NCBI GenBank assembly: GCA_963736705.1 | Contig: CAVTPV010000005.1 | Span: 1,632,353 to 1,696,352 of the forward strand | Source of the DNA: an uncultured Actinomycetota bacterium | GTDB taxonomy: Bacteria; Actinomycetota; Thermoleophilia; RBG-16-64-13 | Reading direction: 5' to 3' | DNA: 64,000 bases | Part shown: piece after piece, positions 32,480 through 58,465 of the stretch | Layout of the letters: each line of letters starts with the position of its first letter | How positions within the stretch are numbered: the first letter of the stretch is position 1 | Translations under genes and position numbers: made by a program | Notes under the pieces: model-generated | What the model saw: only the letters and a program-made list of their open reading frames with translations | What the model was told of the DNA's origin: nothing | The model's database searches: none

Positions 32480-32565
32480 GGGAGTGCGCTTTCGGTCGTT
32501 GACTGGGCGCCGGGAGCGCCGAGGATGCCGCCGGGAGTCTACCAGATGGCCGGCCGTGCGAGGGT

Positions 32566-33630: not shown

Positions 33631-34091
33631 CCGCGGACGGCATGTCGGCTCCGAGCGGGCGGATCATCACGAGCGCATCCTCCCCCGTGTCGCTGTAGTA
33701 GCGCTTGCGCGTGCCCACGGTGGCGAAGCCCCACTTCCCGTAGAGGGCCAGGGCCTCGTCGTTGGTGGGCCGCACCTCCAGCAGCACCGGCTGGGCGGCC
33801 TTGTCGGCGGCGATCGAGGAACTCCTGGAGCAGCTGCGCGGCCACCCCGCGGCGCTGCGCCCATGCCGCCACGGCCAGGTTCATGAGATGCCAGGCGTCG
33901 GGGTAGTCGCGGCCGATGAGGTATCCGGCCACCTCTCCCCTCTCGTTCAGCGTGACCCGGTGCCAGCTCCGGTCCTCTTTGATCTCGTCGTCGAACATCA
34001 TCCGCGTCCAGGGCGTCGCGAAGCACCGGCGCTCGATGGCCAGCACCGCGGGCACGTCGCCCACCTGCATGGTGCGGATGGTGAAATCCAT
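33557..34091 (-). CDS. rimI: Ribosomal protein alanine N-acetyltransferase (frameshifted; possibly fused to TsaD)
   Basis: IERRCFATPW, NLAV, LEVRPTN, RKRYYSDTGEDALVM. Confidence 0.85.
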
Positions 34092-34094
34092 GCC

Positions 34095-34982
34095 CTAAGC
34101 CCCGGGGGCCGTCTCGGCCCAGGGGTCGCGCATCTTGGTGATGTGGATGTCTGCGTCGGGCGAGCGCACGTAGATGGGTTTGACCGCCTCGGGGCTGCCG
34201 GGCTCGCCGGCCTTCATGCCGGGCTCGCGGGCCATGCCGCATCCTGTGTACTCCAGCCAGGAGATCAACTGCGACCCGGCGGACGGTCCGTCCGGCTCCT
34301 GCAACTCGTCCTGTCCGACCACCAGGTTCTCCGCCCGGACTTCCAGGGCGTGCAGGCGCACGTGCTCCGGGGCCGCGGCGCCGCTTGCCGCCGTCTCCAG
34401 CACCCCCACGTCGCCCACCACGGCCGTCTCCACCCCAGCGGGGATGTTGCTGAAGAGCGCGTCCCGGTCGCAGACCGCGAACGGCGCGGTGCGGGCATAC
34501 ATAGCCGAGGCTCCGGCCGCCCCGCCCCCGCCGGCCACCCGCCGGTACAGCCCATAGAAGACCTGCCCCCGCCGGGCGTCCACCACGGGTACGATCAGCT
34601 CCGGCTCCGGTTGCGGCTCCGCCCCGTCCGCCGGTACCCCGGAGGACGCCGCCTCGGCCACGAGCGCGGCCAGCGTGCTCACGCCCAGCACCGGGACCTC
34701 GAGAGCCAGCGCCAGGGCGCGGGCCGTCGCCACCGCGATCCGCACGCCGGTGAACGTGCCCGGGCCGATGCCGGTGACCACCGCGGCGATATCCGCCGAG
34801 ACCCGTCCGGTCTCCGCGAGCATGTCGTCTATCAGTTGCAGCAGGACGCGGGCCTGGCCGCGGCTGTCGGTGTGGGTGCGCCGCGCGAGCGCGCTCCATC
34901 CGGCGGCGGGTTCGTAAGCCACCAGCGCGGCAGTGGACACGTGGGTCGCCCCATCCATCACCACGACCACAGGATCACTCAT
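34095..34982 (-). CDS. tsaB: tRNA threonylcarbamoyladenosine biosynthesis protein TsaB
   Basis: GIGPGTFTGVRI, VSTL, DARRGQVF, PIYVR. Confidence 0.92.
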   Translation of the reverse strand: MSDPVVVVMDGATHVSTAALVAYEPAAGWSALARRTHTDSRGQARVLLQLIDDMLAETGRVSADIAAVVTGIGPGTFTGVRIAVATARALALALEVPVLGVSTLAALVAEAASSGVPADGAEPQPEPELIVPVVDARRGQVFYGLYRRVAGGGGAAGASAMYARTAPFAVCDRDALFSNIPAGVETAVVGDVGVLETAASGAAAPEHVRLHALEVRAENLVVGQDELQEPDGPSAGSQLISWLEYTGCGMAREPGMKAGEPGSPEAVKPIYVRSPDADIHITKMRDPWAETAPGA

Positions 34983-35457
34983 GATGGCGGGCCGCCTCCC
35001 AGCGGGCGCGGGCGTCGTCGGTGAGGGCTTCGAGTTCGATGGAGCGCTCGTGCAGCGACTCGTGGGCCATCCGCACGATCCAGGTGGCCGGCCCCAGCCT
35101 GCCGATGCCGGCCTGCGGCCATTCCACCAGCGTCACCGCGTCGTCGCTCACGTACTCCTCGAGAGCGAGGGCGTCGTCGTCGCCGATGTCGTCGAGCCGG
35201 TAGAGGTCCAGATGCTGCACGACCATCCTGCCCGCGTAGATGTTGGCCAGCGTGAACGACGGGCTGCGCACCGGGTCGGTGACCTCCAGGGCCTCGGCCA
35301 CCGCGCGGATGAGCGTGGTCTTGCCGGCGCCGAGCGGCCCATAGAGCAGGACGAGATCGCCTCCCCTGAGCGCGGCGGCCAGCCTGCGTCCGATGCGTTT
35401 CATCTCGGCCAGGCCGACACCCTGCCGGCGGACTACCACGTGCCCTTCGTCTACCAC
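34975..35457 (-). CDS. tsaE: tRNA threonylcarbamoyladenosine biosynthesis ATPase TsaE
   Basis: GPLGAGKT, SPSFTL, HLDLYRL, VEWP. Confidence 0.93.
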   Translation of the reverse strand: MVDEGHVVVRRQGVGLAEMKRIGRRLAAALRGGDLVLLYGPLGAGKTTLIRAVAEALEVTDPVRSPSFTLANIYAGRMVVQHLDLYRLDDIGDDDALALEEYVSDDAVTLVEWPQAGIGRLGPATWIVRMAHESLHERSIELEALTDDARARWEAARHHE

Positions 35458-36248
35458 AGGGGCAGCTGCTCCTGGCGGTCGGCGGGCGTCGCGGCCGTGC
35501 CCGGCGCTGAGTTCGGCGCCTGCGGCGCGGGCGCCGCCGTCGCGGCGGCCGCTGGTCTCGCCGCCTCGGCGGCCGCGGCCTGAGTGGCGGCCAGCGCCTC
35601 GAGCGCCGCCGCCGGCATCACCTCACCGGTCTCCTCGGCCCGGGCGCTGAGGCCATGGGCCAAGAGGTACTTCAGCTTGGCGAAGTCCTGATCCAGCACC
35701 CCACGGTTCGCCGGGTTGTAGAGCGCCGCCGCCGGATGGAACACCGGGAACACCACCAGGTCCACCCCGCCGATCTCCCTGCGCTTGGCCTTGCCGTGGA
35801 TGGCGGTCATGCTGAGTTCGGTATCGGCCAGGAGCTTGGTGGCGAAGCGGCCCAGGGTGCAGATGACCGCCGGCCTGATGATGCCTATCTGCTCCATGAG
35901 GTGCGGGCTGCACGCCGCGATCTCGTCGGGGAGCGGGTCGCGGTTCTCGGGCGGGCGGCACTTGACCACGTTGGCGATGTAGACGTCGGCGCGGGTCAGG
36001 CCGATCTTGCCCAGGAGTTCCGTCAGCAGCTTGCCGGCCGCTCCCACGAAGGGCTCGCCCTGCTTGTCCTCGTGAAATCCCGGTCCCTCGCCCACGAACA
36101 GCAGCCGCGCGTTGGGATCGCCCACGCCGAACACCACCTGGGTGCGCCCGCTGCAGAGCCCGCAACGGTCGCAATCCTTGAGCGACTCGCGCAGCGCGTT
36201 CAGGGGCCCAGAGGCGTCGTACGTGGATGTCTCGTTCGTGTCGGGCAT
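35451..36248 (-). CDS. Family 4 uracil-DNA glycosylase (Fe-S)
   Basis: CDRCGLC, GEGPG, PFVG, NVVKCRPPENR, HPAA. Confidence 0.93.
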   Translation of the reverse strand: MPDTNETSTYDASGPLNALRESLKDCDRCGLCSGRTQVVFGVGDPNARLLFVGEGPGFHEDKQGEPFVGAAGKLLTELLGKIGLTRADVYIANVVKCRPPENRDPLPDEIAACSPHLMEQIGIIRPAVICTLGRFATKLLADTELSMTAIHGKAKRREIGGVDLVVFPVFHPAAALYNPANRGVLDQDFAKLKYLLAHGLSARAEETGEVMPAAALEALAATQAAAAEAARPAAAATAAPAPQAPNSAPGTAATPADRQEQLPLW

Positions 36249-36366
36249 GCTGTCAGGGTAGCAGAACCGGCTTGCAGGCTGTTATGCTACGCGCGCACCA
36301 CGTGGGATGCTGAGAGTCGAGTTGCGGCCGGACCGTCTACCTTATGGAGGCGTAGCCGGAGACGCA

Positions 36367-39845: not shown

Positions 39846-41195
39846 CCGCCGTCGACCGTGACCTGCTCCGCACCCGCCTCGCCGAGGAGCGCCGGCTCTT
39901 CGAAGCGACCCATCCGAAATCGGCGGAACTGGCCCAGCAGGCCAAGCAACACCTGCTCACCGGCGTGCCCATGGCCTGGATGACCCGCTGGGCCGGGAGT
40001 TTCCCCGTGTTCATGGACTCCGCCGAGGGCGCCCGCGTCACCGACGTCGACGGCAACGAGTACATCGACTTCGCCCTGGGCGACACCGGCGCCATGACCG
40101 GCCATGCCCTCCCCTTCGTGGCCGACGTACTGGCCGAGCGCGCCCGGCACGGCATCACCACCATGATGCCCACCGCGGACGCCATCTGGGTGGCCGGCGA
40201 ACTCAAGCGGCGCTTCGGGCTGCCGCTGTGGCAGTTGGCGCTCACCGCCACCGACGCCAACCGGTTCGTGCTGCGGATCGCGCGGTATCTCACCGGGACG
40301 GCCGAAGATCCTCGTGTTCGATTGGTGCTACCACGGCACCGTGGACGAGACGCTGGCCACCATGGGCCCCAACGGCGAGACGGAGTTGCGGGAATCCAAC
40401 ATCGGGGCGCAGGTGCATCCCTCGCACACCACCAAGGTGGTCGAGTTCAACGACATCCCGGCCCTGGAAGCGGCCCTCGCACCCGGCGACGTGGCCTGCG
40501 TGCTGGCGGAACCGGCGCTCACCAACATCGGCATCGTTCTGCCCGACCCCGGCTACCACGAAGCCCTGCGGGAGATCTGCACGCGCACCGGCACCATCCT
40601 GGTGATCGACGAGACGCACACCATCAGCGCTGGACCCGGCGGGGCCACCGCGGCGTGGGGTCTGCAGCCGGACATGCTCACCATCGGCAAGCCAATAGCG
40701 GGCGGCATCCCGGCGGCGGCGTACGGCATGAGCGCGGAGATCGGGGCGAAGCTCGAGGAGTTCTTCTACAGCGAGGGTGTGGACGTGAGCGGCATCGGCG
40801 GCACCTTGGCCGGCAACGCCCTCTCGGTGGCCGCCATCCGAGTGACCCTGGCCAACGCTCTGCGCGAGCGCGACTTCGACATCGCCATCCCTCTGGCGGA
40901 GCGCTGGACGGACGGAGTGGCCTCGGTGATCGCCCAGCACGGCCTCCCCTGGACGGTGCAGCGCCTCGGCTGCCGCGGCGAGTACTGGTTCTGCGACCCG
41001 CCGCGCAACGGCGCCCAGGCGGCGGCCGCCATCGACCCAGACCTGGAGCACTGGTTCCACCTCTACATGCTCAACCACGGGGTGCTCATGACCCCGTTCC
41101 ACAACATGGCCCTGATGTCGTCCAGCCATGTGGCCGCCGACGTGGACCGCCACACCGAGTTGTTCGCCGACGCGACGGAGCGGATCATCGGGTGA
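39842..41195 (+). CDS. Class III PLP aminotransferase (GSA-aminomutase-like), frameshift near 40300
   Basis: DVDGNEYIDF, EPALTN, IDETHT, GKPIAGG, GGTLAGN. Confidence 0.87.
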
Positions 41196-42000
41196 TGGAC
41201 CGAGCGACCGACCAGCGCAGCCCTTCTCTCTGACCGGCCGCACGGCGCTGGTGACCGGCGCCGGCAGCCCCACGGGCATCGGTTTCGCCACCGCCCGGCT
41301 GCTGGGCCGGATGGGGGCGTCGGTGGCGGTGACCTCCACCACGGAGCGCATCCACGAGCGGGTGGCCGAGTTGCGGGCCGAGGGCATCACCGCCTTCGGG
41401 ATCGTGGCCGACCTCACCGCCCCGGTGGACGTGGCCGCGCTGACGGCCGCCGTCCTGGATTGGCGCCCCGCCGTCGACATCCTCGTCAACAACGCCGGCA
41501 TGGTCTCCCAGGTCAGCGGCTGGGACGCGGAGAAGCCCTTCGAGGACCTCACCCTCGCCGAGTGGGATGAGGCCCTGGCCCGCAACCTGCGCACCGCCTT
41601 CCTGGCCACCCGGGCGTTCCTGCCCGGCATGAAGGAGCAGTGCTACGGGCGGATCATCCTGGTCTCTTCGACCACCGGTACCGTCGGGGCGATGCCCCTC
41701 CAATCCACCTACGGCACCGCCAAAGCGGCCATGACGGGGCTGGTGCGGTCGCTGGCGGTGGAAGTCGCCGAGTTCGGGGTCACCGTGAACGCCGTGGGCC
41801 CAGGCTGGATCGCCACCGGGTCACAGACCGCCGCGGAAGCCGAGGCGGCGCTGGCCGCTCCGATCCGCCGCGCGGGCACACCCGACGAGGTGGCCGCGGC
41901 CATCGCGTTTCTGGCGTCGGCCGAGGCGTCATACGTCACGGGGCAACTGCTGGTGATCGACGGCGGCAATGCGCTCATCGAGGACAAAGCGCACGTCTGA
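41195..42000 (+). CDS. Short-chain dehydrogenase/reductase (FabG-like)
   Basis: TGAGSPTGIG, LVNNAG, YGTAK, VNAVGPG, YVTGQLLVIDGG. Confidence 0.9.
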
Positions 42001-43755: not shown

Positions 43756-44755
43756 CAGAGCCCCGCCGCGCCGCTCGCGGCGGCGGCGCCGCCCTCTTCC
43801 CGCCCGGCCGCCAGATCCGTCACCGACAGCGCCCCTCCCAGGCCTTCGGCCGCCCGCACCGCGCGGCGGATGCTGGCCGCCACCGCGTCGGCGGCCGCCA
43901 CGCCCACTTGGAACACGTTCCCCGGCATCCGCCCGGTGGCCATGGTGAAGACGCAATCTCCATCCCGGGGTGTATGGACGGGGTCGATGGCCCGGGCGAA
44001 GCCGTCATGGGCCATCCGGGCGACTATGCCGCACTGCAGTTTGTCGAGGGCGGCGTCGGTCATCACGACGGCCAGCGTGGTGTTCTCGATGGCGCCGAAC
44101 AGCGGCGCCGCCGTCATCGCCAGCAGCACCGCCTTGCTGCCGGCGAAGCCCGCCGTCGCGCCGCGCGCCCGCGAGGATCTCCGCCGTGCTCGTCCAGCAC
44201 GTCGCCGAGCGGGTTCACCACGGTCAGCGCGCACACGGTGGCGCCCTCCCCGGTCTGCACCGAGGCCAGGCCCACACCGCCCTTCATCATCCCCTGGAAA
44301 CCCAACACCTTGCCGACGGTCGCTCCGGTGCCGGCCCCCACGGAGCCCTCCTGCACCAGCGGCCCCGCGGCGGCAGCCGCCTGGTAGGCGTCGCCCGCGC
44401 TCGGGCAGGCGGTGGCGCTGCCCAGTCCAAGGTCGTAGATGACCGCGGCGCTCACCAGCGGGATCTTGGCGAACGGGGTCTGGTAGCCGTAGCCCTTCTC
44501 CTGGAGGAAGGCCGTGATCCCGGCAGCCGCGCCCAGACCGGGCGCGCTCCCCCCGGTGAGTAGGATGGCGTGAAGCTCGGTCACCGACGCGAACGGCGAC
44601 AGCAGGGCCGTATCCAGCGTGCCCGGGGCTCCCCCGCGGATGTCCACCGAGGCCACGGCGCCTTGCGGCGCCAGGACCGCCGTGCAGCCGGTCAGCCCCT
44701 CCAGATCGGAGTGGTGGCCGACAAGAAAGCCCTCGATAGGAAGTTCGGCGGCCAT
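43755..44755 (-). CDS. P1 family (DmpA/ThnT-like) self-processing hydrolase, frameshifted
   Basis: TGCT, RGGAPGT, LTGGS, GSVGAGTGA, KGGVG, ENTT, HTPRDGD. Confidence 0.85.
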
Positions 44756-44829
44756 CTCGGTGTTCGGCGCCCCTGGTCGGCGGTTCGCGGCAGGTCAGCG
44801 GCCCGATGTGTGTCGCTATCGGGCCTGCG

Positions 44830-46129
44830 TTACCGCGAGTTCTTCCTCATCTGCTCGAGGAACTCGTCGTTGGACTTGGTCTCTTTGAGCTTCTGGATGA
44901 GCAGCTCGATGGCCGCGTTCGGATCGAGAGCGTGCAGCACGCCGCGCAGCTTCCAGACCATCTTGGCCTCGGCCGGGTCCATGAGCAGCTCTTCCTTACG
45001 CGTACCGGAGTTCTCGATGTCGATGGCCGGGAACACGCGCTTGTTCGCCAGGTTACGGGTGAGGCGCACTTCCCAGTTGCCGGTGCCCTTGAACTCCTCG
45101 AAGATGACCTCGTCCATGCGGGAGCCGGTCTCCACCAGAGCCGTGGCCACGATGGTGAGCGAGCCGCCTTCCTCGATGTTACGGGCGGCGCCGAAGAACT
45201 TCTTCGGGCGGATACAGCGCCGTGGAATCCACACCACCCGACAGGATACGGCCGCTGGCCGGCGCCTGCAGGTTGTAGGCCCGGGCCATCCTGGTGATGG
45301 AGTCGAGCAGCACCACGACGTCCTTGCCCACTTCCACCAGGCGCTTGACGCGCTCGAGCACCAGTTCGGTGACCTGCACGTGGTTCTCGCCCGGCATGTC
45401 GAAGGTGGAGGCCACGACCTCGCCGTTGACCGTCCGCTCCATGTCGGTGACCTCTTCAGGCCGCTCGTCCACGAGCAGGACGATCAGGTGCACCTCGGGG
45501 TTGTTGGTGGCGATGGCGTGCGCCAGGTCCTTGAGGATGGTGGTCTTGCCGGCCTTCGGCGGCGACACGATGAGCCCGCGCTGGCCCTTGCCCAGCGGGG
45601 AGATGATGTCCATGACCCGGGCGGACATCTTGTCCGGAGTGGTCTCCAGGCGCAGACGCTGGTCGGGGAACAGCGGGGTGAGCGATTCGAAGTTGGGACG
45701 GTGCCGGGCCTGCTCGGGGTCGATACCGTTCACCGTGGAGATCTTGAGCAGCGCGTGGTACTTCTCGTTGTCACGCGGCGTGCGCACCTGGCCGGTGATC
45801 TCGTCGCCGCGGCGGAGCTTGAAGCGCCGGATCTGGCTGAGCGACACGTAGATGTCGGAGTCCGACTGGGTGTAGCCCTGCGTGCGCAGGAAGCCGTAGC
45901 CGTCGGGGAGGATGTCCAGCAGACCGGTGCGGAAGTGCAGGCCGCGGTCCATGGACTGTTCGTTCAGGATCTTCCAGATGAGGTCCTGCTTTGAGTACTT
46001 GCGGTAGTTCTTGATGCCCAGTTCGCCGGCCACCATGTGCAGGTCGGACAGCAGCTTGGGCTCGATCTCGGACAGCGGCGTGGGTTTTGCCGTCTCGCGG
46101 CCTTGTTCCTGTTCCTGGATGGGGTTCAT
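44830..46129 (-). CDS. rho: Transcription termination factor Rho (frameshift near 45210)
   Basis: [49 protein letters not shown]. Confidence 0.97.
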
Positions 46130-46149
46130 TCGCTGTTATTCTCTCTCTT

Positions 46150-47178
46150 TCATCTGATGGCGAGAGCCACCATGGGGCCCCCGTTCTGGGTACGGTGAAG
46201 TGACTTGATGGTACGGACGGTGTGGCAGTTGGAGCACATGATCACCGTCTCGGTCTGGATGCCGTCCCTGCGGACGTCGATGCCTCTGAGGAAGCGCCCG
46301 CCCGTGACGGCCGTGGCCGAGAACAGGACGCCGTCGTGGGCCAGATCCGCCGCGGTGAGCGGCGTCTCCACGTCGTCGAAACCGGCGGCCCTGACCTGCT
46401 CCACTTGGATACGGGACACGGGCCAGAAGCGTGCCTTCATCTCTCCGCCGATGCAGTGCAAGGCGGCCGCGGCCAGCACGCCTTCTATCGACCCACCGAT
46501 GCCGATGGTCATGTGCACGCCGCTCTCCCGGAGAGCGGCGGCGATGCCGGCCGAGATATCCCCGTCAGGGATGAGCTTGAGCCGGGCGCCCGCGGCCCGG
46601 ACCTGCGCGGCCAGTTCCTCATGACGCGGCCTATCGAGCACCACGACCACGAGTTCCGAAGTGGGCAGGGCGAGGGCTTTGGCCACACCCCGGATGTTGT
46701 CCGCCACGGAGGCGTCTATGTCGACCGCCGCAGCCGCCTGGCCGGGGACGATCATCTTCTGCATGTACATCTCGGGCACTTGCATCAGGCTGCCCTGCGG
46801 CCCCGCGGCGATCATCGAGAGCGCTCCTTCAGCGCCCCGAGCCAGCGCGTTGACGGCCTCGAGCGGCTGGACGATGGCGTCCCAGAGCGGGGCCTCCTGG
46901 GCCGCCTCCTCCAGGTCGTCGCCGGCAGCGGCCGCGTCGCGCGGGCTGCCTCCCAGCACGTCTCCAGCCTGCAGACCGGCCGGCCCACGGCCGCTGCCCC
47001 GGCTGCCGACCACCCTGATCTTCAGCGGGCTCGCCGATAGGGCCTCTGCCATGGCAGCGCGCGCCGCCATCTCGCCCGCCAGCCCGTCGCCCCGGCCGAT
47101 CCACTCGGCGGCGCCCAGGGCGGCCGCTTCGGTCACGGCCACGAACCGCGTGCACATACAGCGAGCCTCAGCGTTCAC
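46150..47178 (-). CDS. glpX: GlpX-family (FBPase class II) protein with degenerate catalytic motifs
   Basis: TEAAA, WIGRGD, YMQK, LDRPRH, PDGD and GIGGSIEGV retained; GEGE and DPxEGT motifs altered. Confidence 0.85.
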   Translation of the reverse strand: MNAEARCMCTRFVAVTEAAALGAAEWIGRGDGLAGEMAARAAMAEALSASPLKIRVVGSRGSGRGPAGLQAGDVLGGSPRDAAAAGDDLEEAAQEAPLWDAIVQPLEAVNALARGAEGALSMIAAGPQGSLMQVPEMYMQKMIVPGQAAAAVDIDASVADNIRGVAKALALPTSELVVVVLDRPRHEELAAQVRAAGARLKLIPDGDISAGIAAALRESGVHMTIGIGGSIEGVLAAAALHCIGGEMKARFWPVSRIQVEQVRAAGFDDVETPLTAADLAHDGVLFSATAVTGGRFLRGIDVRRDGIQTETVIMCSNCHTVRTIKSLHRTQNGGPMVALAIR

Positions 47179-47190
47179 CGGCCTGCACCT

Positions 47191-48106
47191 TCAGTATGTC
47201 TCGATGACTCCGTACAGCGCGTCCACAACCGTCCCTACCGTGTCGTCGATGTTGACGTTGTCTACGATCAGCGTTCCTTCCGTCTCCGCCCGCTCCAGGA
47301 TGAAGTCCTGGATCTTGCGTATGTCCTCGAAGCCTTGCAGGTACCGGGCCAGCATCCGCCGCCCCGAGGTCTGCTGCTCTCGCACCAGGAAGTGGCTCCT
47401 GTGGAGCGCCTCTTCCTTCACCACCACCACCAGAGGCAGGAGCAGCGCGTCGGACAAGCCCTCCTGGCCCACCGGCAACTCCAGCATCCCGGGGACCATG
47501 TGGACCCCTTCGACCACCATGCTCGTCCGCTCCTTGATGGCCCTGTCGATGATGGCCCGCACTCCCACGTTCACCATCTCGACCTGCTCCATGAAACCCA
47601 GCAGCCGGGCATCCATGCCCGGCCCCAGCGGCATCCTCACAGCCGCCCCCGCCTCGTACGACGAGTAGTGCAGCGACGGCATGAGCTTCTCCGAGAAGAA
47701 GGCCCGCATCGCCTGCCGGATCGCGTCGGTGGAGATGGTCCTCACTATCCCCAGCCTCTGCGCCACCTGAGCCGCGATGGTGCTCTTGCCCACACCGGTC
47801 GCGCCCCCGATGAGCACGATCACCGGCCTGTCCTCGGCCGCCATCTGGTTCCAGATGCGATAGCGCCGCAGATACATCTGCTCCCCGCTATCGGCCAGCA
47901 CCTTCTCCACGAGCGACCGAAGATCGTCGATGCCCACCTCGCGCTCCGCCGCCTGCAGCAACTGCCGCTCGACGTCCATCGCCACCGCGTACGCCCGCTG
48001 GGGCGACAACCCCGTGGACGTCAGGGCCGTCGCCAGCAATCCCTTGGAGAACGGGACCTTGTGTCCCTCGTTCACCAACTGGATGGGCAGGCCCCTCCGG
48101 CTTCAT
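47191..48106 (-). CDS. 2-phosphoglycerate kinase with ATP-cone (frameshift near the start)
   Basis: PFSKGLLA, LIGGATGVGKST, STDAIRQAMR, LHYSSY, VEGVH; next to cpgS. Confidence 0.88.
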
Positions 48107-48108
48107 CG

Positions 48109-49519
48109 CTATCGCTCCTTGAACCTCTGCGCAGCCATCCCGGCCAGGTCCCGGGCCAATATCCGCGAGGGTGCCGCTCTCTTCTCGCAGACCCCCATCG
48201 GGCCCCACTTCCACCGGCATGTTGTCCATGAAGACCACCGGCAGGCCCCGCTCCGCCGCCTTCTCGGCCACCGTGTCGATGGCCGCCGCTTTGATCTCGG
48301 TGACCACCGTGTCCACCCGGTCCATCGCCTCACTCGCGAGGTCCTTCCGGAGCGCCTCCCGGTCGGCCAGACTCGTGGAGAACAACTCCACCCGGCATCC
48401 GCACCGCTCCTCCAGGTACCTCTTCAGCACATCCCGCTGCCTCGCCGGCGCCGTCGAGAAGACCCCTACTCTGCGGCCCTCGACGCTCTCCATGGGCCGC
48501 GGCCGGAAAACCACCGGCACCACCGGGATGCCCGGATGCACCGCCTCGATCGCCTCACGCACCGCCCGGACCTTCTCCGGCGAGGCCAGAGGCTCCTCCG
48601 CCATGGTCAGCACCACCGCGTCGCTGATGAGCAGCCGGTAGGTACCCAGATACCCGGCTATGTCATCCACCGCCTGGTGCGCCCCGGCTATCAGCAACCG
48701 TGCGTCCGCCGCCACCGGCGGCTGCGCCGCCCCGCTGCCCTCCAGGACGATCAACCCGGGCCGAAGGCTGTTGGCCAACTCGACGCCCTCGGCCACGTTC
48801 GAGACGAAGGGCTCGCCTGCCATGCCCCCGCCGCAGCGCCGGCACCCCACGGTGACGACCCCGCTGAGAGCCGCGTCCTCGAAGTAGTCCGAGGCTGCGT
48901 GCTTGCCCTGCCGGCTCCACGCCAGAAGGTCCTCGGCCGTCAGAGGCCTCTTGGTGCCGTCGACGACCTCCGGCTCGCCGGGCCCGCCGCGCCCCATGGC
49001 CACCACGACGACTCCCGGTCCCCCTTGCTGCACGGGGACGGCCGCTTGAAGGACCCGAGCCACATATCCGCTCAACGCGGTCTTCCCCACCCGCTTACCG
49101 GTACCGATGATGGAAAGCGAGGGAACGGCGCAAAGATGCGAAGAAGTCGTGGGACTGAAGTGGAAATCGGGGCCTACGTACCCCACCCCGCGCGCCAAGG
49201 ACGTGCTCGCCAGGCGGAAACGCTGCACATATCCTAGCACCGGTTCGTCGCTGAGGTCAACGACCACCTCAGGACGGTACCGGTCGATGGCCGCTTCAAG
49301 CCCGGCCGGCCAGCCGCCGGGGAACTCGTCGGCGAACATCACCGGCAGGCCGTAGAGGCCCTCAGCCTTCTCCTTGAGCCCCGTCCGCTCGATCTTCTCG
49401 GCCCCGCCCAGGAACAGGGCCGCCCGCAGTTCGTAGGTTTCGGCGGCATGCCGCAGGGCGTCCCGCACCACCGGAGGGTAGTGCTCGCCGTCGATGAGGA
49501 CTATCGCCGGGATGCTCAC
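48109..49519 (-). CDS. cpgS: Cyclic 2,3-diphosphoglycerate synthetase (frameshift near the C-terminus)
   Basis: IDGEHYPP, DLSDEPV, GTGKRVGKTA, AMGRGGP, HAASDYFEDA, GCRRCGGG, EGSGA, TEIKAAAID. Confidence 0.92.
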
Positions 49520-49549
49520 GCCGATGCCCCTCTCACGCCCGCGCCCCGC

Positions 49550-50305
49550 TCACCCTGTCGCCCGGTCGAACTCCACGATGGTCTCGGAACCGTGGAACGG
49601 GTAGTGCCGCGTGACCGTGATGTGCTCGCCCTTGATGTCCACCACGTTGTAGCAGGGCTTGGTGTCGCCGCGAAGCCGCAGCGACGCGACCGTCCCGGCG
49701 TTCACGATGTACATGTTCTCCAGGTGCCAGGCGTACGGCACGTGCTTGTGGCCCGACAGCACCAGGTCCACCCCGCACTCCATGAGCACCTCGAGCACGT
49801 CCCCGGCGTCGTTGACGATGTTGCGCTCCCGCCCCGTGCCCGGGATGGGGATCAGATGATGGTGGAGCATGAAGATCTTGATGTCGTCCGGGTTCTCCAT
49901 GAACGTCTCCCGGATCACCGGGTAGCGGTGCCGTCCGATGCGGCCGTAGTCCAGGTCCGGCTCGGTGGAGTCCACGCCCAGCAGCGTCACCCCGTTCTTG
50001 CGGATGTGGTTCTCCCTCGTGGCGAACAGGCGCTCGAAGTGCGCGTAGCCCACGTTGCGGCTGTCGTGGTTGCCCGGCACCACCAGGACGTCGGGGCAGG
50101 TGAGGCGGTCGAGATACTCCCGCGCCTCCCTGAACTCCTGGCGATAGCCCATGCTGGTCAGGTCACCCGTGACCACCACGATATCCGGCTTGAGGTCGTT
50201 CACCTCGACCAGCGCTCCGATCCAGCAGGTTGGGCACGAAGTACTGCGAGCCCAGATGCAGGTCGGACAGGTGAGCGATCACGCACGAGCGGGGGAGTCT
50301 CCCAT
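49550..50305 (-). CDS. Calcineurin-like metallophosphoesterase (CpdA/Icc-like), frameshifted near the start
   Basis: HLSDLH, TGDLT, PGNHD, LHHH, SGHKH. Confidence 0.88.
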
Positions 50306-50368
50306 CGTGGCTACCTCGCTAGGACGATAGCTCATCGACCGGCGCCGCGCGCCCGGCGGGCGGCGCGG

Positions 50369-51649
50369 CTACAGCACCCTCAGGGTCATAGGCTCGCTGG
50401 TGCAGCAACTCAACGCCTTCATCTCCTCGATGGCGGCGAAGAAGTTCTTCTCTTTGGTCGGGTGGGTGATGAGCACCAGTTCGGCCTCGCGCTCCCCGCC
50501 CCTTCTGGATCATGCTGGCGATGGACACCCCGTGGCCCCCGAACACCGAGGCGATGCTGGCCAGCACGCCCGACACGTCCTCGACGTTGGTCTTGATGAA
50601 GAACGCCGATTCCACGTCCTCCGCCGGGTAGAAGCCCAGCTCGCGGTAGCAGGAGCAGGCTCTGCAGGAAGCCCACGTCCTTGGTGTTGGTGATCGACAC
50701 GATGTCGCTCACCACGGCGGTGGCCGTCTGCTGGCCGCCGGCGCCCGGGCCCATCAGCATGATCTCGCCGATCTCGGTGCCCTGGAGGAACACCGCGTTG
50801 TTGGCCCCGTTGATGGAAGCCAGCGGATGGTCCTTGGGCACCAGGGCCGGGAACACGCGCACGCTCACCCTGCCGTCGATGAGCCGGGCCGCGCCGATGA
50901 GCTTGACCACGAACCCGAGGTCCTTGGCGTAGCGGACGTCGTCCAGGGTGACGTTCTGGATACCCTCGTAGGCCACGTCGCTGAGCTTGACCCGCGAATG
51001 GAAGGCTATGGAGCCGAGGATGGCCATCTTGGCGGCAGCGTCGCCCCCGCCCACGTCGGCGGTGGGGTCGGCTTCGGCGTAGCCCAGTTCCTGAGCTTTC
51101 TTCAGGATGTCGGCGTAGTCGCCCTCGTCGTTGTACATCTTGGTGAGGATGTAGTTGGTGGTGCCGTTGACGATGCCGTACACCGTCTTGATACCGGCGG
51201 CGATCATGCTCTCGCGCATCACCTTGATGATGGGGATGGCGCCGGCCACCGAGGCCTCGAAGCGCAGGTGGCGCTGCTCGTCGCGGGCCAGCGTCGAAGA
51301 GGGCCTGGCCGCGGCTGGCAAGGAGCTGCTTGTTGGCCGTCACCACGTTCTTGCCCTTGCGCATGGCGGCGTCGAGGAAGTCGAACGCGAAGGTCGTGCC
51401 GCCGATGACCTCCACCACGATGTCGATGGTCGGGTCGTCCACGATGTCGGCGAAGTCGGCGGTGAACAGGTCCGCGGGAACGTCGGCCGGGCGCTTCTTG
51501 GGGTCGATCTCCAGGACTTTCGCCACCTGGAGGTCCACGCCGGTGCCCTCGAGGATCTGGTCGTGCTCCTTCTGGATCAGCCGGTAGACGCTGGACCCGA
51601 TGGTCCCGAATCCCAGCAGCCCTATGCGCACGATCCTATCGCGGCCCAT
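50369..51649 (-). CDS. hom: Homoserine dehydrogenase with C-terminal ACT domain (frameshifted)
   Basis: GFGTIG, VTANK, FEASVAGAIP, GIVNGTTN, EADPTADV, GPGAG. Confidence 0.95.
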
Positions 51650-51667
51650 CTCGTTCCTCGTCTTTCG

Positions 51668-52994
51668 CTATTCGTTGCCGTGCAGTTGATGATGCTTCGC
51701 CACCAGGTCCGCGTAGCTCTCCCGCTCGATGATGACCCGGGCCTGGCCCTCGTTCACCAGGATCACCGCCGGCCGCGGGTTCCCGTTGTAGTTGGAAGCC
51801 ATCGCGAAGCAGTACGCGCCGGTGGCCGGCATCACCAGGATGTCTCCCGGCTCGGGCTTCGCGAGCAGGACGTCCTTGATGAGGATGTCGCCGCTCTCGC
51901 AGTGCTTGCCCGCCACTGTGACTCTGGTATCGGCAGTCTGGCTCGCTTTGTTAGCCAGCATGCCTTCGTAGAGCGCGTCGTAGAGCATGGGCCGGATGTT
52001 GTCGCTCATGCCCCCGTCGACGCTCACGTAGGTGCGGACCCCGGGGATCTCCTTGATGGTGCCCACGGTGTAGGCGGTGACTGCCCGCCTTGCCCACGAT
52101 GGAGCGTCCCGGCTCGATGAGCACGCGCGGCATGGGCAGGCCTCGGGCCGCCATCTCCTTGCGCACGCCCTCCACCTTGACGGCCGCGTAGTCGCCGATG
52201 GACGACGGGGTGTCTTCTTCGGTGTAGCGGATGCCCAGGCCACCGCCGATGTTCAGGTAGCGGCACTCGAAACCGTAGGCCTTGTTGGCCTGTGCGATGA
52301 GCCCCACCAGGATCTCGATGGCCTTGCGGAAGCCCTCGAGCTCGAAGATCTGGCTGCCGATGTGGGCGTGCAGCCCGATGAGGTCAAGATGCGGCGCCGC
52401 CATGGCCTGGCGGATGGCCTCCATGGCCACGCCTTCGTCCAGCCCGAAGCCGAACTTGGAGTCCACCTGCCCGGTCTGGATGTACGAGTGCGTGTGGGCC
52501 TCGATGCCCGGCGTGATGCGCAGCAACACCTTCTGCCGCTCGCCCCGCGCCCCCGCCAGCTCGTCCAGCATGGCGAGTTCCTGGAAGCTGTCGATGACCA
52601 CGAAGCCGACGCCTCCGGAGAGAGCGTATTCCAGCTCGGCCCGGGTCTTGTTGTTGCCGTGGAAGAAGATCTTCTCGGGCGGGAAACCGGCGATCTTGGC
52701 CACGTGGTACTCGCCGCCGGACGACACGTCTATGGAGAAGCCCTCTTCGAGCACCAACTGGGCTATCGCCACGGCGGAGAACGCCTTGCTGGCGTAGATG
52801 ATCTCGAAATCCTGGGTATGTTCCGCGAACGCCTTCATGTAGCGCCGGCACTGGTCGCGGATGGATTTCTCCTCATACACGATGAGTGGCGTGCCGAATA
52901 CATCGACCAAGTCGACGATGTCGCAACCGTCGATCTCGAGATGCCCGGCACCGTTATGGCGCGCGGTGATGGGATAGACGAGCGTGTGGGTCAA
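51668..52994 (-). CDS. lysA: Diaminopimelate decarboxylase (frameshift near 52080)
   Basis: YASKAF, HGNNK, HAHIGSQ, EPGRSI, HCESGD, GAYCFAMASNYN. Confidence 0.95.
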
Positions 52995-53073
52995 AGCAGC
53001 CTCCAGACGGGAAACACGGGTACGTTACCACAGAGGCTGATGCAAGTGCAGGCTGGTAGAATTGACACTCAGG

Positions 53074-53431
53074 ATGACCGAGCAGCCCCCTATCTTCTCG
53101 TATTTCCGCGGCAGCAAGGAACCCACCTTCGCCACCCGCACGGAGCTGGAAGCCGCCAAGCTTTTCGACTACCACCGTATCGCTTGGGAATACGAACCCC
53201 GTACCTTCATCCTCGAGCAGGACGACACGCGGCAACATCCAGGAAGCGTTCACCCCCGACTTCTACCTGCCCGATCTTGAGCTCTTCATCGAGGTCACCG
53301 AGATGAAGCAGTCGCTGGTGACGGCCAAGAACCGCAAGGTGCGCAAACTCCGGGAGAAATACCCCGATGTGCGCGTCAAGCTGCTGTACCGCAAGGACTT
53401 CGTGCGGCTGGCGCAGAAGTATGGGCTGTGA
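53074..53431 (+). CDS. Small PD-(D/E)XK-like nuclease-fold protein (frameshift near 53230)
   Basis: Merged translation includes WEYEPRTF...AFTPDFYLPDLELFIEVTEMKQ...KNRKVRKLREKYP. Confidence 0.7.
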
Positions 53432-54033
53432 TGGAAGAAGAGTGCCGGGAACCAGATACGCAGACGCGCCGCGAGCCCGACGCGCCGGAGGTCGGTGACG
53501 TCTTCCTCGACGCCGGGACGATCGCCCACCGGGTCGCGGAACTGGGCGCCCAGATCAGCCACGACTACGCCGGCCAGGAGATCCTGCTCGTGGGCCTGCT
53601 CAAGGGCTCGATCTTCTTCCTCTCGGATCTGGCGCGAGCCATCGCCCTCCCCTTGGAGATAGACTTCCTGTCCCTGAGTTCCTACCGCCAGGAGCACATG
53701 GAGATCGGCGCCAAGGCCATCCGCTTCCTCAAGGACCTCGACCAGCCCATCAAGGACAAGAACGTCGTCGTCGTCCAGGACATGATCGACTCCGGGCTGA
53801 CGCTGCACTACATCTACCGGTCGCTCAGCCTGCGCCGGCCCCGGTCGCTGGAGGCCTGCATCCTCTTCGACCGCCCGCAACTGCGGCTCGTGGACCTCGA
53901 CGTCAAGTACACCGGCTTCGACGTGCCCGACGACTTCTTCGTGGGCTACGGCTTCGACTACCACCAGCTGTACCGCAACCTGCCGTACGTGGCCTACCTC
54001 AACAGCGGCGCGCTCGACGCGGCCCTGTTCTGA
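53431..54033 (+). CDS. hpt: Hypoxanthine phosphoribosyltransferase (atypical QD in PRPP motif)
   Basis: LLKGS, SSY, VVQDMIDSGLT, FFVGYGFDY, YRNLP. Confidence 0.85.
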   Translation: MEEECREPDTQTRREPDAPEVGDVFLDAGTIAHRVAELGAQISHDYAGQEILLVGLLKGSIFFLSDLARAIALPLEIDFLSLSSYRQEHMEIGAKAIRFLKDLDQPIKDKNVVVVQDMIDSGLTLHYIYRSLSLRRPRSLEACILFDRPQLRLVDLDVKYTGFDVPDDFFVGYGFDYHQLYRNLPYVAYLNSGALDAALF

Positions 54034-54914: not shown

Positions 54915-55247
54915 TCAAGGACGCATGCACTGGACGTACTTGAAGAACACGTCGAAGGCCCGCTCCAGCGATTCCGGATCCAGCTGGGCCCCGGTGGTGT
55001 CTTCCAGGCAGTCCTTCATGTGGTGGCTGATGAGGTGCGTGCCCACCCTCTCGAGGGCGGACTTGACTGCGGCGAGCTGAGCCAGGATCTCTTCACAGTC
55101 CTTGCCCTGCTCGATCATGCGCTGCAGACCCCGGACCTGGCCCTCGATACGCGCGAGCCGGTTGAGGACCTTCGCGTCGTCTTCGGTCATGGCCCGTTTG
55201 GCGTCTGCCCCTGGGGCTGGAACGGGAGCCGCGGCATCGGTCGCCAT
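54915..55247 (-). CDS. CsoR/RcnR family transcriptional repressor
   Basis: LNRLARIEGQVRGLQRMI, C-EEIL-QLAAV, HMKDC. Confidence 0.9.
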   Translation of the reverse strand: MATDAAAPVPAPGADAKRAMTEDDAKVLNRLARIEGQVRGLQRMIEQGKDCEEILAQLAAVKSALERVGTHLISHHMKDCLEDTTGAQLDPESLERAFDVFFKYVQCMRP

Positions 55248-55293
55248 TCCGTCCTCCTTAGAGTGAAATGCTCGCTGTCTTCCTCACCGATGA

Positions 55294-55744: not shown

Positions 55745-56581
55745 CTACCGCTGACAGTCCGGGCAGTAAGCAGTCCCTCTCCCCCCGACCACCGTCCGCG
55801 CCATGGTGCCTCCGCACCGACGGCACTCCTGCCCCTGCCGGCCGTAGGCCTGCAGCCAGTCCTGGAAGCCTCCCGGCTGTCCCTCGGTGTCGACGAAGTC
55901 CGACAGCGTGCAGCCCAGCAGGCGCACGCCCTCAGACAGCCTGGTGCGGATCTCGTCCGCGAGGCAGCAGACCTGCTCCTCCACCAGGGTGCCCGCTTCC
56001 CGCAGCGGCGACAGCGCCGTCCACCAGAGGATCTCGTCGGCGTAGATGTTGCCTATGCCGGCCAGGTGCCGCTGGTCGAGCAGGAAGGCCTTGAGCGGAG
56101 CGGTGCGGCTGCGCAGCCGCCGCTCCAGGTAAGAAGCGTCCCAGTCGCCCTTCCAGGCGTCGGGACCCAGGTTCTCCAGCCGGGGGGCCGGGCCTCCGGA
56201 GGTCAGGTGGAAGCGCCCGAACTTGCGCATGTCGCGGAACTCGAGGCCGATCTCGCTGCCGGGCTCCCGGCCGGCGCCGCTCGACGCCAGACGGAAGACG
56301 AAGCGGGTGTGCGTGCCGGGGTCCGCCGGGTCGATGAGCAACTGCCCGGTCATGCCCAGGTGCAGCGTCAGAAAGAGGCCGCCGTCCAGCACGACGATGA
56401 TGAACTTGCCGATCCGGTCGATCCGCTCGATGGTCCGCCCGGGCAGCAGCGCCTCTACATCTTCGGCGGCGCAGTCGCGGAGCATGGCCGGCTCCACCTG
56501 TTCGACCGCCAGGAAGGTGGCCCCGGTGATGCCGGCGTCCAGTTGGCAGCGGACGGTCTCGACTTCGGGAAGCTCAGGCAC
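55745..56581 (-). CDS. mutM: Formamidopyrimidine-DNA glycosylase
   Basis: PELPEVE, HLGMTG, DMRKFG, AGIGNIYADE, C-terminal zinc finger. Confidence 0.96.
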   Translation of the reverse strand: MPELPEVETVRCQLDAGITGATFLAVEQVEPAMLRDCAAEDVEALLPGRTIERIDRIGKFIIVVLDGGLFLTLHLGMTGQLLIDPADPGTHTRFVFRLASSGAGREPGSEIGLEFRDMRKFGRFHLTSGGPAPRLENLGPDAWKGDWDASYLERRLRSRTAPLKAFLLDQRHLAGIGNIYADEILWWTALSPLREAGTLVEEQVCCLADEIRTRLSEGVRLLGCTLSDFVDTEGQPGGFQDWLQAYGRQGQECRRCGGTMARTVVGGRGTAYCPDCQR

Positions 56582-56641
56582 GGCGACCGAGCCCCCGCGT
56601 GCCGCGCCAAGTCGGCGCCGGCGTGGCTGGGCGACGGCCTG

Positions 56642-58465
56642 TCACATGCTCTCCGGGGCGCTCACTCCCAGCAGGTCCAAGCAGCGGAAGATCACCGTCT
56701 TGGTGACCATGCACAGCGCCAGCCGCGATGAGCCCAGGGCCGGCGACACGCCGATGACCCGGCAGTGCTTGTAGAAGACGTGGAAGTCGGCGGCCAACTC
56801 CTGCGCGTACGCGGCGATGCGGTGCGGCGCGCGCCGTTCGGCGGAGTCCTGCACGGTCCAGGCGAAGGATTCGAGGCGCTTGAGCAGCGCCCGCTCGTAC
56901 GGCGAGGCGAACACCTCAGGGTCGTCCATGATGGCGGGCTTGATCTCTTCCGGCACGTTTCTGCAGGATGCTGGCGATGCGCGCGTGCGCGTACTGCACG
57001 TAGTAGACCGGGTTCTCCGCGGACTGCTGCTGCGCGAGACCCAGATCGAGGTCGAGGGTCTGATCGTGGGAGCGCATCACCAGGAAGAAGCGGGCGGCAT
57101 CCACGCCGATGGCCTCCACCAGTTCGCCCAGGGTCACCATCTCGCCGCGCCGGGTGGACATCTGCCTGAGTTCGCCCTGTTCCAGCAGGTTGACCAGCTG
57201 CCCGATGATGACCTCGAGGGTGCCCGGCCTGCCGGACAGGATCTCCAGAGCGGCGCTTCATGCGCGGCACGTAGCCGTGGTGGTCGGCGCCCCAGATGTT
57301 GATGAGGTGCTCGAAGCCCCGCTCCAGCTTGTTCTCGTGATAGGCGATGTCCGCGGCGAAGTAGGTGGGCCGGCCGTTGCCCCGGATGAGCACCCGGTCC
57401 TTGTCGTCGCCCCGGGAGGTGGTCCGCAGCCAGACGGCTCCGCCCTCTTCGAAGGCCTCGCCCTTGGCCAGCAGGTCCTCGACGACCCGCTCGAGCGCCC
57501 CGCCCACGTGGAGCGTGGTCTCGCTGAACCAGGTGTCGAACACCACGCCGAAGGACGCGAGCTCCGCGCGCATCTCGTCGAGCATGAGGACGCAGGCCTG
57601 CCTGCGGAAGAAGGTGACCGCTTCCTCCACCGCCGGATCGGCCGGCCAATCGGAGGGCGCCGCGTCCTCGTCCTGGTCTTCGGCGTCGTTGGGGTCTTCC
57701 GCGTCGTTCTGGCCTTCGGCCTCGGCCGAAGCCGCCGGCGGCCGCCGCCTGCCCGGCGGGCGAAGCCCCGGGCCCAGCTGCGGCCGCGCTCGCCACCAGG
57801 GTCAGGGCCGGCAGGTAGGCATCGCCCACTTCCGCCCGGATGGTCGCCGCCACGTCCTTGACGTACTCGCCCTGGTAGCCATCGTCCGGCACCGGCAGGT
57901 CGACGTCGAATGACTGCGCGTAGCGGGCGGCCACGCTGCGGCCGAACCGGTCCATCTGCCGGCCGTAGTCGTTGATGTAGAACTCGGTGGAGACCTTGGC
58001 GCCGGCGAACGCCATCAGGCGGTGGAGAGCGTCGCCGTACGCCGCGTAGCGGCCGTGGCCCACGTGCAGAGGCCCGTTGGGGTTGACGCTCACGAACTCC
58101 AGGTTGACCCAGGGATGTTCGCGCAGCTCGCCCCGGCCGATCTCTTCCCCCTCCGCCAGCAGGCCGGCCATGGCCTCGGAGTAGGCGGCCCCGCTCAGAG
58201 TGAAGTTGAGGAAGCCCGGCCCCGCCACGTCGATGCGCTCCACCGAGCGGGCGACGTCCGGGTCGGCCAGAAGGCGGGTGCGCAGCTCCTCGGCCAGCAT
58301 CTTGGGGGCCTTCTTGGCCGTGCGGGCCAGCTGCATGCAGAGCGGCGTGGCGTAGTCGCCGTGGGCGTCCTCAGCCGGGCGCTCCAGCCGCACGGACGGC
58401 CTGTCCGCCCAGCCTTGCTCCTCAGCCCAGCCGTCCACCACTCTCTGCACGAGTTCGGTTATCAC
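56642..58465 (-). CDS. argS: Arginine--tRNA ligase (frameshifted; acidic insertion)
   Basis: HGDYAT, AGPGFLN, EFVSVNPNGPLHVGH, WGADHHGY, NPVYYVQYAHAR, SAPESM. Confidence 0.96.

Follow-up and report, generated by a model that had tools for sequence, protein, structure and literature searches.

Can a soil-type bacterium make cyclic 2,3-diphosphoglycerate (cDPG)? In those parts of the literature on the compound that we consulted, cDPG is valued as a heat-protective extremolyte; the excerpts of De Rose 2023 (PMC10690619) at our disposal describe it as exclusive to hyperthermophilic methanogens, and the consulted part of a 2025 synthesis paper restricts it in much the same way. The question is raised by a stretch of 64,000 nucleotides (contig CAVTPV010000005.1, positions 1,632,353 to 1,696,352; the whole stretch is hereafter called the window) from an uncultured Actinomycetota bacterium assigned to the Thermoleophilia. 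A preliminary description of the window had recognised in it a gene for cDPG synthetase (cpgS) next to a gene for 2-phosphoglycerate kinase (2PGK), and had stated that no demonstration of native bacterial cDPG was known. The latter statement agrees with our literature searches, which did not cover supplementary material and in which no report of cDPG in bacteria was found. Here we present evidence that both genes are what they were taken to be at the level of family, that they belong to an old gene block with a third conserved member, and that the interruptions of their reading frames are very probably errors of the assembly. Based on these genes, the balance tips modestly towards a cDPG-producing bacterium in which the compound probably serves as a solute or as a phosphate, carbon and energy pool that is turned over, and not as a heat protectant.

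The identity of the synthetase is the firmest part of the argument. The cpgS gene lies on the minus strand at 48109..49519, starting with GTG at 49519 and ending with TAG at 48111-48109. In a PDB search its product matched the chains of the cDPG synthetase (cDPGS) of Methanothermus fervidus (8ORK and 8ORU) with an E value of 1.3e-113 and 384 bits; the alignment spans residues 6-441 of the product and 8-437 of the 460 residues of the chain, and hence includes the N-terminal domain. A second cDPGS entry, PDB 9SXB (436 amino acids), matched with an E value of 2.9e-96; were this protein of bacterial origin, it would be of immediate relevance here. According to the consulted sections of De Rose 2023 (PMC10690619), which also describe the Walker A motif, 2,3-diphosphoglycerate (2,3-DPG) is bound by K145 and R146 together with E45 and K46 of the other subunit, T150 and D208 are the Mg ligands, and E305, P335, T353 and E404 contact ADP. 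Mapped by hand from the PDB alignment, residues E45, K46, K145, R146, T150, D208, E305, T353 and E404 correspond to E41, K42, K142, R143, T147, D211, E308, T356 and E408 of the window product. All nine are identical, and none of them varies among 12 aligned sequences from the class. The residue given as P335 maps ambiguously (residue 335 of the chain is F by count), and the V-F-R-P-x-P stretch surrounding it is conserved. The product also contains the Walker A sequence GTGKRVGKT, and an intact homologue of 469 amino acids (P0001) is 91% identical to it and shares both its start and its ...QRFKER terminus. Thus, cpgS encodes a cyclic 2,3-diphosphoglycerate synthetase by homology, its catalysis being predicted; the earlier claim that the gene carries the signature motifs is upheld by a near full-length match to the M. 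fervidus enzyme in which the named ligand residues are kept. JGI and NCBI already label bacterial homologues as cyclic 2,3-diphosphoglycerate synthetase, and cpgS homologues carry a precomputed PF27272 label.

The gene that follows cpgS, at 47168..48106 on the same strand, starts with ATG at 48106, has an AAGGAG sequence 8 nt upstream of this start, and ends, once corrected as described below, with a stop at 47170-47168. Its open reading frame (ORF), scored without about nine N-terminal residues owing to a frame break, matches the 2PGK models NF003259 (E 3.9e-85, 285.9 bits, profile positions 12-288 of 306) and NF008994 (E 5.1e-87, 292.4 bits). A Pfam ATP-cone at residues 5-78 (E 5.5e-10) is followed by a P-loop with the Walker A sequence GGATGVGKST. 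No solved structure was matched by the kinase in the PDB search. It can be aligned end to end, at 32-35% identity, with the kinases adjacent to cpgS in the Methanolliviera and Natronoplasma loci, and the motifs PFSKG, Walker A and EGxHxxPG are common to the window kinase and these archaeal linked kinases. The kinase is therefore of the cpgS-linked type that is also found beside cpgS in archaeal loci, and 2PGK activity is predicted for it. In the case of this gene, the earlier statement that all signature motifs of a 2PGK are present stands as far as the ATP-cone, the P-loop and the matches to the 2PGK models are concerned, and fails at the curated cut-offs, to which we return below.

A difficulty for any pathway at this locus is that the letters of the window, as given, hold no two intact genes at 47191..49519, where the preliminary description had correctly placed both on the minus strand. 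The body frame of cpgS continues to 47888 as an ORF of 543 codons, the true tail, ...ARDLAGMAAQRFKER followed by TAG 48109, being in the +1 frame; read as protein-like sequence this tail is ...ILARDLAGMAAQRFKER, with TAG at 48111-48109. The cause is a surplus base near 48163, which moves the last ~20 codons of cpgS to another frame. The kinase gene contains surplus bases near 48090, 47198 and 47187, the first of which sets ATG 48106 out of frame with the body, so that the body opens at TTG 48078 and reads, as lettered, from 48078 to 47191. The N-terminal region of the upstream phosphoesterase gene (mpe) requires two frame shifts, with errors near 50296 and 50213, and a further indel at 50330 lies just upstream of its ATG. 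These breaks were seen by eye, and those of the neighbouring genes by matching intact proteins of three relatives back to the window: hom changes frame three times (-1, -2, -3, -1), lysA once near 52090 (-3 then -1), and rho once near 45200 (-1 then -2). There are thus at least nine frame breaks over ~8 kb in seven consecutive genes, in a genome of 3.23 Mb that is assembled into 6 contigs, yet is only 71% complete.

Contigs from independent metagenome runs show how the sequence should read. Contigs of soil runs (X1 and X5) and wetland runs (X2 and X3) align to this stretch and are mostly 90-99% alike to it, those of X1 and X5 being 95-99% alike; X1 and X5 cover all seven indel places, and X2 and X3 cover part of the stretch. 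The covering contigs omit one letter at each of 47187, 47198, 48090, 48163 and 50213 (those of X1 and X5 omit both the base that breaks the cpgS frame and the base that displaces the kinase start) and add one letter behind 50296 and behind 50330. Applied by script, these seven corrections restore all three ORFs: the corrected phosphoesterase begins MGDVPRSCVIAHLSDLH, the corrected cpgS ends ...GTLAILARDLAGMAAQRFKER and reads through to TAG 48109, and the corrected kinase, opened by ATG 48106, terminates in ...GVIENTEGQAGER before a stop at 47170-47168. The earlier description of cpgS and the kinase gene as lying 2 bp apart does not hold for the sequence as lettered; it does hold after the removal of two surplus bases (TAG 48109 / ATG 48106), which is supported by the soil-run contigs. 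Because hom, lysA and rho are broken in the same way, and because near-identical contigs lack the surplus bases, we conclude that the frame breaks very probably stem from an indel-rich assembly and are not signs of decay, and that the genes are very probably intact in the organism. A programmed frameshift is rejected on the same grounds, as is the reading of the genes as pseudogenes. What speaks for a pathway decaying in this organism is that cpgS, the kinase gene and the phosphoesterase gene all need frame changes as lettered. Given, in addition, the incomplete genome in so few contigs, the lack of in-frame stops or large deletions, and the 91% identity to an intact homologue, we consider real frame breaks extremely improbable. 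Overlapping pairs of same-strand ORFs suggest more breaks elsewhere in the window (31646-33663, 33591-35132, 34975-36281, 40167-42000 and 56642-57257), and ORF-based readings of this genome require frame-tolerant searches.

Restoring the frames brings out a member of the locus that the preliminary description had missed. The gene mpe, directly upstream of cpgS at 49550..50305 on the minus strand (250 codons; ATG 50305, TGA 49552-49550), encodes a calcineurin-like metallophosphoesterase (Pfam Metallophos, 1.1e-14). Gene order in the window was assigned from Pfam and NCBIfam profile matches, and the genes form a tightly packed putative operon, (hom)-metallophosphoesterase-cpgS-2PGK-glpX-rho, in which GTG 47178 of glpX overlaps the corrected 3' end of the kinase gene. 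The intact relative L013 has the order thrC, mpe, cpgS, kinase, glpX; there, mpe extends over the cpgS ATG by 4 nt, the kinase gene abuts cpgS, and glpX overlaps the kinase gene. A promoter and terminator scan of 44000-54000 gave no signal exceeding that of shuffled sequences. The preliminary description had regarded the pair as inserted between lysA-hom and glpX-rho. This does not hold: the mpe gene stands between hom and cpgS, and the block phosphoesterase-cpgS-2PGK-(glpX)-rho recurs across the classes of the Actinomycetota, so that the gene order is ancestral rather than the result of an insertion.

The recurrence of the block was followed at several taxonomic depths. Among 25 loci of the same class compared for gene order, the kinase gene follows cpgS in all 25, mpe precedes cpgS in 24 (all but L016), and glpX lies downstream in 20. 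A scan of one genome per species yielded at least 563 loci that encode a cpgS relative, the best 80 of which were compared. They are mainly from Actinomycetota (Thermoleophilia/Gaiellales, Rubrobacteraceae, Coriobacteriia and Aquicultor), with a few from Bacillota, Anaerolineae and Neomarinimicrobiota and, among archaea, from Methanobacteriaceae, Methanobrevibacter, Methanolliviera and Natronoplasma. Within these best 80 loci, mpe lies at most 400 nt upstream of cpgS in 67, further upstream in one (L071), and downstream, in a rearranged cassette, in two (L088 and L102); it was not seen in the remaining 10, five of which have less than 1,600 nt of upstream sequence. The rearranged cassette, cpgS-2PGK-CBS-tandem phosphoesterase, is found in one archaeal genome and one from an unclassified bacterium, the Natronoplasma version consisting of MarR, cpgS, the ATP-cone kinase, a CBS pair and a tandem phosphoesterase of 497 amino acids. 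The kinase gene is directly downstream of cpgS in 55 of the best 80 loci. The other 25 include three that are cut off and 16 of a Rubrobacter type (L042, L046, L048 and 13 more), in which the kinase gene is missing from the locus and, in most, glpX and rho come next after mpe and cpgS. A phylum family that matches this layout (f19) has its kinase gene elsewhere on the chromosome. At a wider scale the synthetase family is large, with 418 clusters at 50% identity (E <= 1e-30) and more than 8,000 at 90% identity.

Co-occurrence in whole genomes gives a similar picture. Of 41 genomes from the class, 29 contain both cpgS and the kinase gene, neither of which was found without the other, and mpe is also present in 29, two genomes differing; cpgS and the kinase gene were not found in families f2, f3, f5 and f7 (10 of the 41). 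A sample of the phylum was drawn from genomes with a completeness of 90% or more. Of its 201 genomes (matches at E <= 1e-20; the tallies include eight genomes flagged as unpublished, G041, G057, G086, G105, G124, G153, G177 and G202), 116 gave a match for cpgS, 115 for mpe and 117 for the kinase gene, with about three discordant genomes per pair: G058 and G220 have cpgS but not mpe, G039 has mpe but not cpgS, G162 has cpgS but not the kinase gene, and G126 and G205 have the kinase gene but not cpgS. In addition, all three archaeal cpgS genomes tested contain close mpe homologues elsewhere (E 1e-72 to 1e-87) as well as the kinase gene, and mpe and 2PGK were not found in either of the two bacterial genomes tested that have a lone cpgS. 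Methanobacteria, with members such as Methanobrevibacter, are a class wider than the hyperthermophiles. Among 81 genomes of this class (G230 and G235-G314), cpgS was found in 76, and one cpgS locus is titled Methanobrevibacter. Even among archaea, then, cpgS extends beyond the hyperthermophiles.

What kind of enzyme the phosphoesterase is can be judged from its motifs and its relatives. Members of the calcineurin-like superfamily carry the metal-binding motifs DxH, GD, GNH[DE], H and GH. The corresponding motifs of mpe are SDLH (after indel correction, and present in relatives too), an invariant GD, GNHD, HHH and GHKH, and its relatives share an invariant P-x-P-G-x-G-R-E-R loop (GRER). By profile, the nearest solved relatives are Rv0805 (3e-15) and GpdQ (1e-14). 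In the mpe tree, one branch with weak support (62) separates the 91 copies that adjoin cpgS from a clade (starred in the tree; support 95) made up of four unlinked paralogues, and also from the four copies of the rearranged cassettes. Taken together, the phosphoesterase appears to be co-inherited with cpgS and to belong to the clade of cyclic-nucleotide and glycerophosphodiester phosphodiesterases, and the two genes are predicted to be co-transcribed. From its gene context and co-occurrence, it is a candidate hydrolase of cDPG or 2,3-DPG, an assignment that we regard as a real possibility, albeit the lesser one. The unlinked paralogue has been seen in two loci of family f9, where it adjoins a gene for a PlsC-type acyltransferase (L108:3827-4750 and L109:3911-4780) and, in L109, also a gene for an NAD-dependent glycerol-3-phosphate dehydrogenase, which hints at a role of this paralogue in glycerophospholipid metabolism.

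How did an archaeal-type pathway come to lie in the core operon of an actinobacterium? A quick IQ-TREE reconstruction of cpgS was made from 106 sequences, none of which was dropped for length, the window's own copy (L001) being left out. It recovered the Rubrobacteria (support 100), a clade rich in Coriobacteriia (99) and several clades of Thermoleophilia, and it places the window in a 99-supported clade of 30 rows titled uncultured Actinomycetota, Gaiellales or Thermoleophilia. The identity of cpgS products is 74-81% for members of one genus, 60-71% at the level of the family and about 50-56% at that of the class. The G+C content of the region is ~67%, and the G+C at third codon positions (GC3) is 0.79 for cpgS and 0.91 for the kinase gene, compared with 0.78-0.93 for their neighbours. 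The simplest reading of these data is that the module is old and has been vertically inherited within the Actinomycetota. The preliminary description had already taken the codon style as a fit to the host that suggests long residence; the GC3 values within the neighbour range and a tree that follows the classes bear this out, and with the presence of cpgS in 116 of the 201 phylum genomes the case is stronger than had been stated. As to the host itself, it is an uncultured soil-type actinobacterium resembling Thermoleophilia or Gaiellales, in a habitat that does not look hot, near-identical DNA being found in soil and wetland metagenome runs.

Based on these observations we propose the following scheme. 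The ATP-cone kinase would phosphorylate 2-phosphoglycerate with ATP to 2,3-DPG, as predicted from its archaeal homologues. The synthetase would then close the two phosphates of 2,3-DPG into the cyclic pyrophosphate cDPG at the expense of ATP, as in M. fervidus, and the phosphoesterase may open or dephosphorylate cDPG or 2,3-DPG. In this scheme cDPG would store phosphate, three-carbon units and phosphoanhydride energy in a pool that is turned over, or be a compatible solute, or both. In the excerpts of Roberts 2005 (PMC1224877, section 24) on which we rely, cDPG is tied to gluconeogenesis and to the storage of carbon, phosphate and energy in methanogens. A role as heat protectant is unlikely in this host because near-identical DNA occurs in the soil and wetland runs. 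A pool or a solute is favoured over it because a phosphoesterase is coupled to the synthetase, the gluconeogenic gene glpX is adjacent, the habitat is soil or wetland, and the kinase carries an ATP-cone. A more far-reaching form of the proposal, namely that the three genes constitute a make-and-break cycle gated by the ATP-cone of the kinase, and that cDPG is a common buffer well beyond the hyperthermophilic methanogens, is tentative, and as a whole we would not expect it to be correct.

Several observations weigh against the proposal. The kinase falls under both NCBIfam equivalog cut-offs (285.9 versus 343 bits for NF003259; 292.4 versus 603 for NF008994), and some enzymes of its family, mevalonate-3-phosphate 5-kinase for instance, act on different substrates. 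The cpgS product matched no model in the copies of Pfam and NCBIfam that were searched. In family f9, in which 14 of 14 genomes have cpgS, the only mpe homologue is non-adjacent, and in both f9 loci fetched this homologue is of the paralogue type. Of the 81 Methanobacteria, 70 have both cpgS and mpe, 6 have only cpgS, 3 have only mpe and 2 have neither; mpe homologues thus occur in 73 of the 81 genomes, with one to four copies each (E about 1e-75), and co-occurrence in Methanobacteria is uninformative as an independent test of the link between mpe and cpgS. It should be noted that the genomes counted are in part related to one another and hence no independent samples, which makes the support from co-occurrence look stronger than it is. 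Furthermore, the cDPG hydrolase in the consulted passage of Roberts 2005 (PMC1224877) is membrane-bound, and mpe shows no such sign. Finally, the bacterial members of this route are known from genes, the product being deduced from homology.

Some of these points lend themselves to other explanations of the locus. The enzymes may act on other substrates, or the route may effectively end at 2,3-DPG: the kinase might use another hydroxy-acid, or the synthetase might be mainly ATP-forming on another bisphosphate. The kinase scores under the curated 2PGK cut-offs and the substrates of its family relatives would fit such a reading, as would the two bacterial genomes with cpgS in which the kinase was not found and the reversibility of the M. 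fervidus synthetase reported in the excerpt of Roberts 2005 (PMC1224877). However, every mapped contact of the solved enzyme to 2,3-DPG, Mg and ADP is kept, and the kinase is of the same type as those linked to cpgS in archaea and co-occurs with it in about 115 of the 116 cpgS genomes of the phylum sample, which makes this explanation improbable in our view. Somewhat less so, though still unlikely, is that cDPG is made as a bulk compatible solute that accumulates, in the manner of hyperthermophilic methanogens, as an osmo-, desiccation- or thermoprotectant, the phosphoesterase and glpX being unrelated to it. The overlap of the phosphoesterase gene with cpgS in the intact relative L013 argues against such an accumulation, as do its linkage to cpgS in the rearranged cassette outlined above, and a habitat that is not hot; moreover, at E 1e-20 the phosphoesterase was not found in those tallied actinobacterial families in which cpgS was not found. 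On the other hand, this is the role described for archaeal cDPG in the consulted parts of De Rose 2023 (PMC10690619) and Roberts 2005 (PMC1224877), soil bacteria meet drying and osmotic swings, synteny within one phylum may persist by descent, and the phosphoesterase of the Methanobacteria is unlinked and imperfectly co-distributed.

A different kind of alternative concerns the origin of the pair rather than its product, namely that archaea donated it recently by horizontal transfer and that it was inserted into a core operon. It was in archaea that the pathway was originally described, and archaeal and some non-actinobacterial sequences stand together in the tree: across the midpoint, archaea share a group with Bacillota, Anaerolineae, Fidelibacterota and Aquicultor, although the tree is unrooted and no donor can be named. 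Such a transfer is hard to reconcile with an identity that declines with taxonomic distance, class-level clades with support of 99-100, the same flanking genes across classes and a composition that fits the host, and we give it next to no credence. Two further candidates concern the place of the products in metabolism. 2,3-DPG could serve as the cofactor of a dependent phosphoglycerate mutase (dPGM), which is ruled out, no dPGM being found over its cut-off and the independent type (iPGM) being present. The iPGM gene is itself in three frame fragments (G000:C5:1623639-1625155, G000 being the source genome), ~7 kb before the window start. The kinase could likewise be the missing homoserine kinase, since canonical homoserine kinase (TIGR00191, thrB) was not found in the source genome and the operon occupies the place that thrB has in other actinobacteria. 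Canonical thrB is missing in four of five complete cpgS genomes and present in four of five cpgS-less genomes. Nevertheless, this candidate is ruled out as well: TIGR00191 exceeds its cut-off in none of the four complete cpgS relatives G004, G011, G012 and G034, and all four carry, elsewhere in the genome, a match over the cut-off to TIGR02535, the proposed homoserine kinase. NF040667 exceeds its cut-off in none of five cpgS genomes tested. The TIGR02535 type is phosphoglycerate-mutase-like, and G037 has canonical thrB without TIGR02535. We therefore retain as the preferred reading that the bacterium makes cDPG as a pool or solute, which we hold with modest confidence.

The neighbouring genes, all on the minus strand, frame the module on both sides. 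Downstream lie glpX, for class II fructose-1,6-bisphosphatase (46150..47178; Pfam FBPase_glpX 7.5e-90, with a TIGR00330 score of 202 bits, under the cut-off of 259), and rho, for the transcription termination factor (44830..46135; Rho_N, Rho_RNA_bind and partial ATP-synt_ab domains). Upstream lie hom, for homoserine dehydrogenase (50372..51664; Pfam Homoserine_dh), and lysA, for diaminopimelate decarboxylase (51668..53024; Orn_Arg_deC_N and Orn_DAP_Arg_deC match two overlapping ORFs). In the window and in the same-genus loci L002 and L008, hom directly precedes mpe; in most relatives thrC intervenes (for example L013:2057-3124), and the sole thrC match over its cut-off in the source genome is on another contig (C1:263022-263789). 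Farther along, the window contains a gene for a CsoR-type metal-sensing repressor (54915-55283), one for the DNA glycosylase Fpg (55745-56641), and frame-broken gene fragments with a DALR anticodon-binding domain, likely from an arginyl-tRNA synthetase (56642-57257).

The window is a further member of a set of bacterial homologues that have already been annotated by machine, and it comes in a poor assembly. What is new here is the contig evidence for frame errors, the counts for the phylum and for the Methanobacteria, the split between adjacent mpe copies and paralogues, and the exclusion of the two alternatives concerning the dPGM cofactor and homoserine kinase. If soil Actinomycetota make cDPG, the biology of the compound shifts away from a heat shield and towards a phosphate and energy store or a drought solute, and one of the major uncultured groups of soil would turn out to hold phosphorus in a pool so far overlooked. 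Production of cDPG could then draw on bacteria that are easy to grow and on enzymes from mesophiles. If the buffer proposed above were real, over half of the actinobacterial genomes sampled, mesophilic lineages from soil, sediment and gut among them, would use cDPG to buffer phosphate, carbon and energy, and the same would apply to most Methanobacteria. The conserved phosphoesterase provides a concrete and cheaply testable gene candidate for the breakdown step.

How, then, does the locus compare with the systems that are known? The M. fervidus cDPGS (8ORK and 8ORU) and the window cpgS product share the Walker A motif, the N-terminal E-K pair that reaches into the site of the partner subunit, the T and D that bind Mg, and the residues in contact with ADP. 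In contrast to the archaeal enzyme, whose activity is established, that of the window product is predicted, its host is a soil-type bacterium, and its gene is in an operon with those for a kinase, a phosphoesterase and GlpX. The archaeal 2PGK (NF003259 / PRK04220) resembles the window kinase in combining an ATP-cone with a P-loop and in abutting cpgS, as it does in Methanolliviera and Natronoplasma, whereas the score of the window kinase, 285.9 bits against a cut-off of 343, means that the equivalog rule of NCBI withholds the name. In the case of the phosphoesterase, the class III cyclic-nucleotide phosphodiesterase Rv0805 and the glycerophosphodiesterase GpdQ (2HY1, 2DXL and 2ZO9) have the dinuclear-metal motifs in common with mpe, but they are distant from it, and mpe has its own P-x-P-G-x-G-R-E-R loop. 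The breakdown step proposed for mpe corresponds to the cDPG hydrolase activity of Methanothermobacter thermautotrophicus; as described in the consulted passage of Roberts 2005 (PMC1224877), which names no gene, that hydrolase is membrane-bound and inhibited by K+ and phosphate. The cassette of a halophilic archaeon (L102) is like the window in that the cpgS, 2PGK and phosphoesterase families are linked, and differs from it in gene order, in an additional CBS-pair protein and in its tandem phosphoesterase of 497 amino acids, which is 27-40% identical to mpe. Set against the known archaeal system, that of the window is bacterial, belongs to a habitat that is not hot, and is organised in an operon together with a phosphoesterase gene and glpX.

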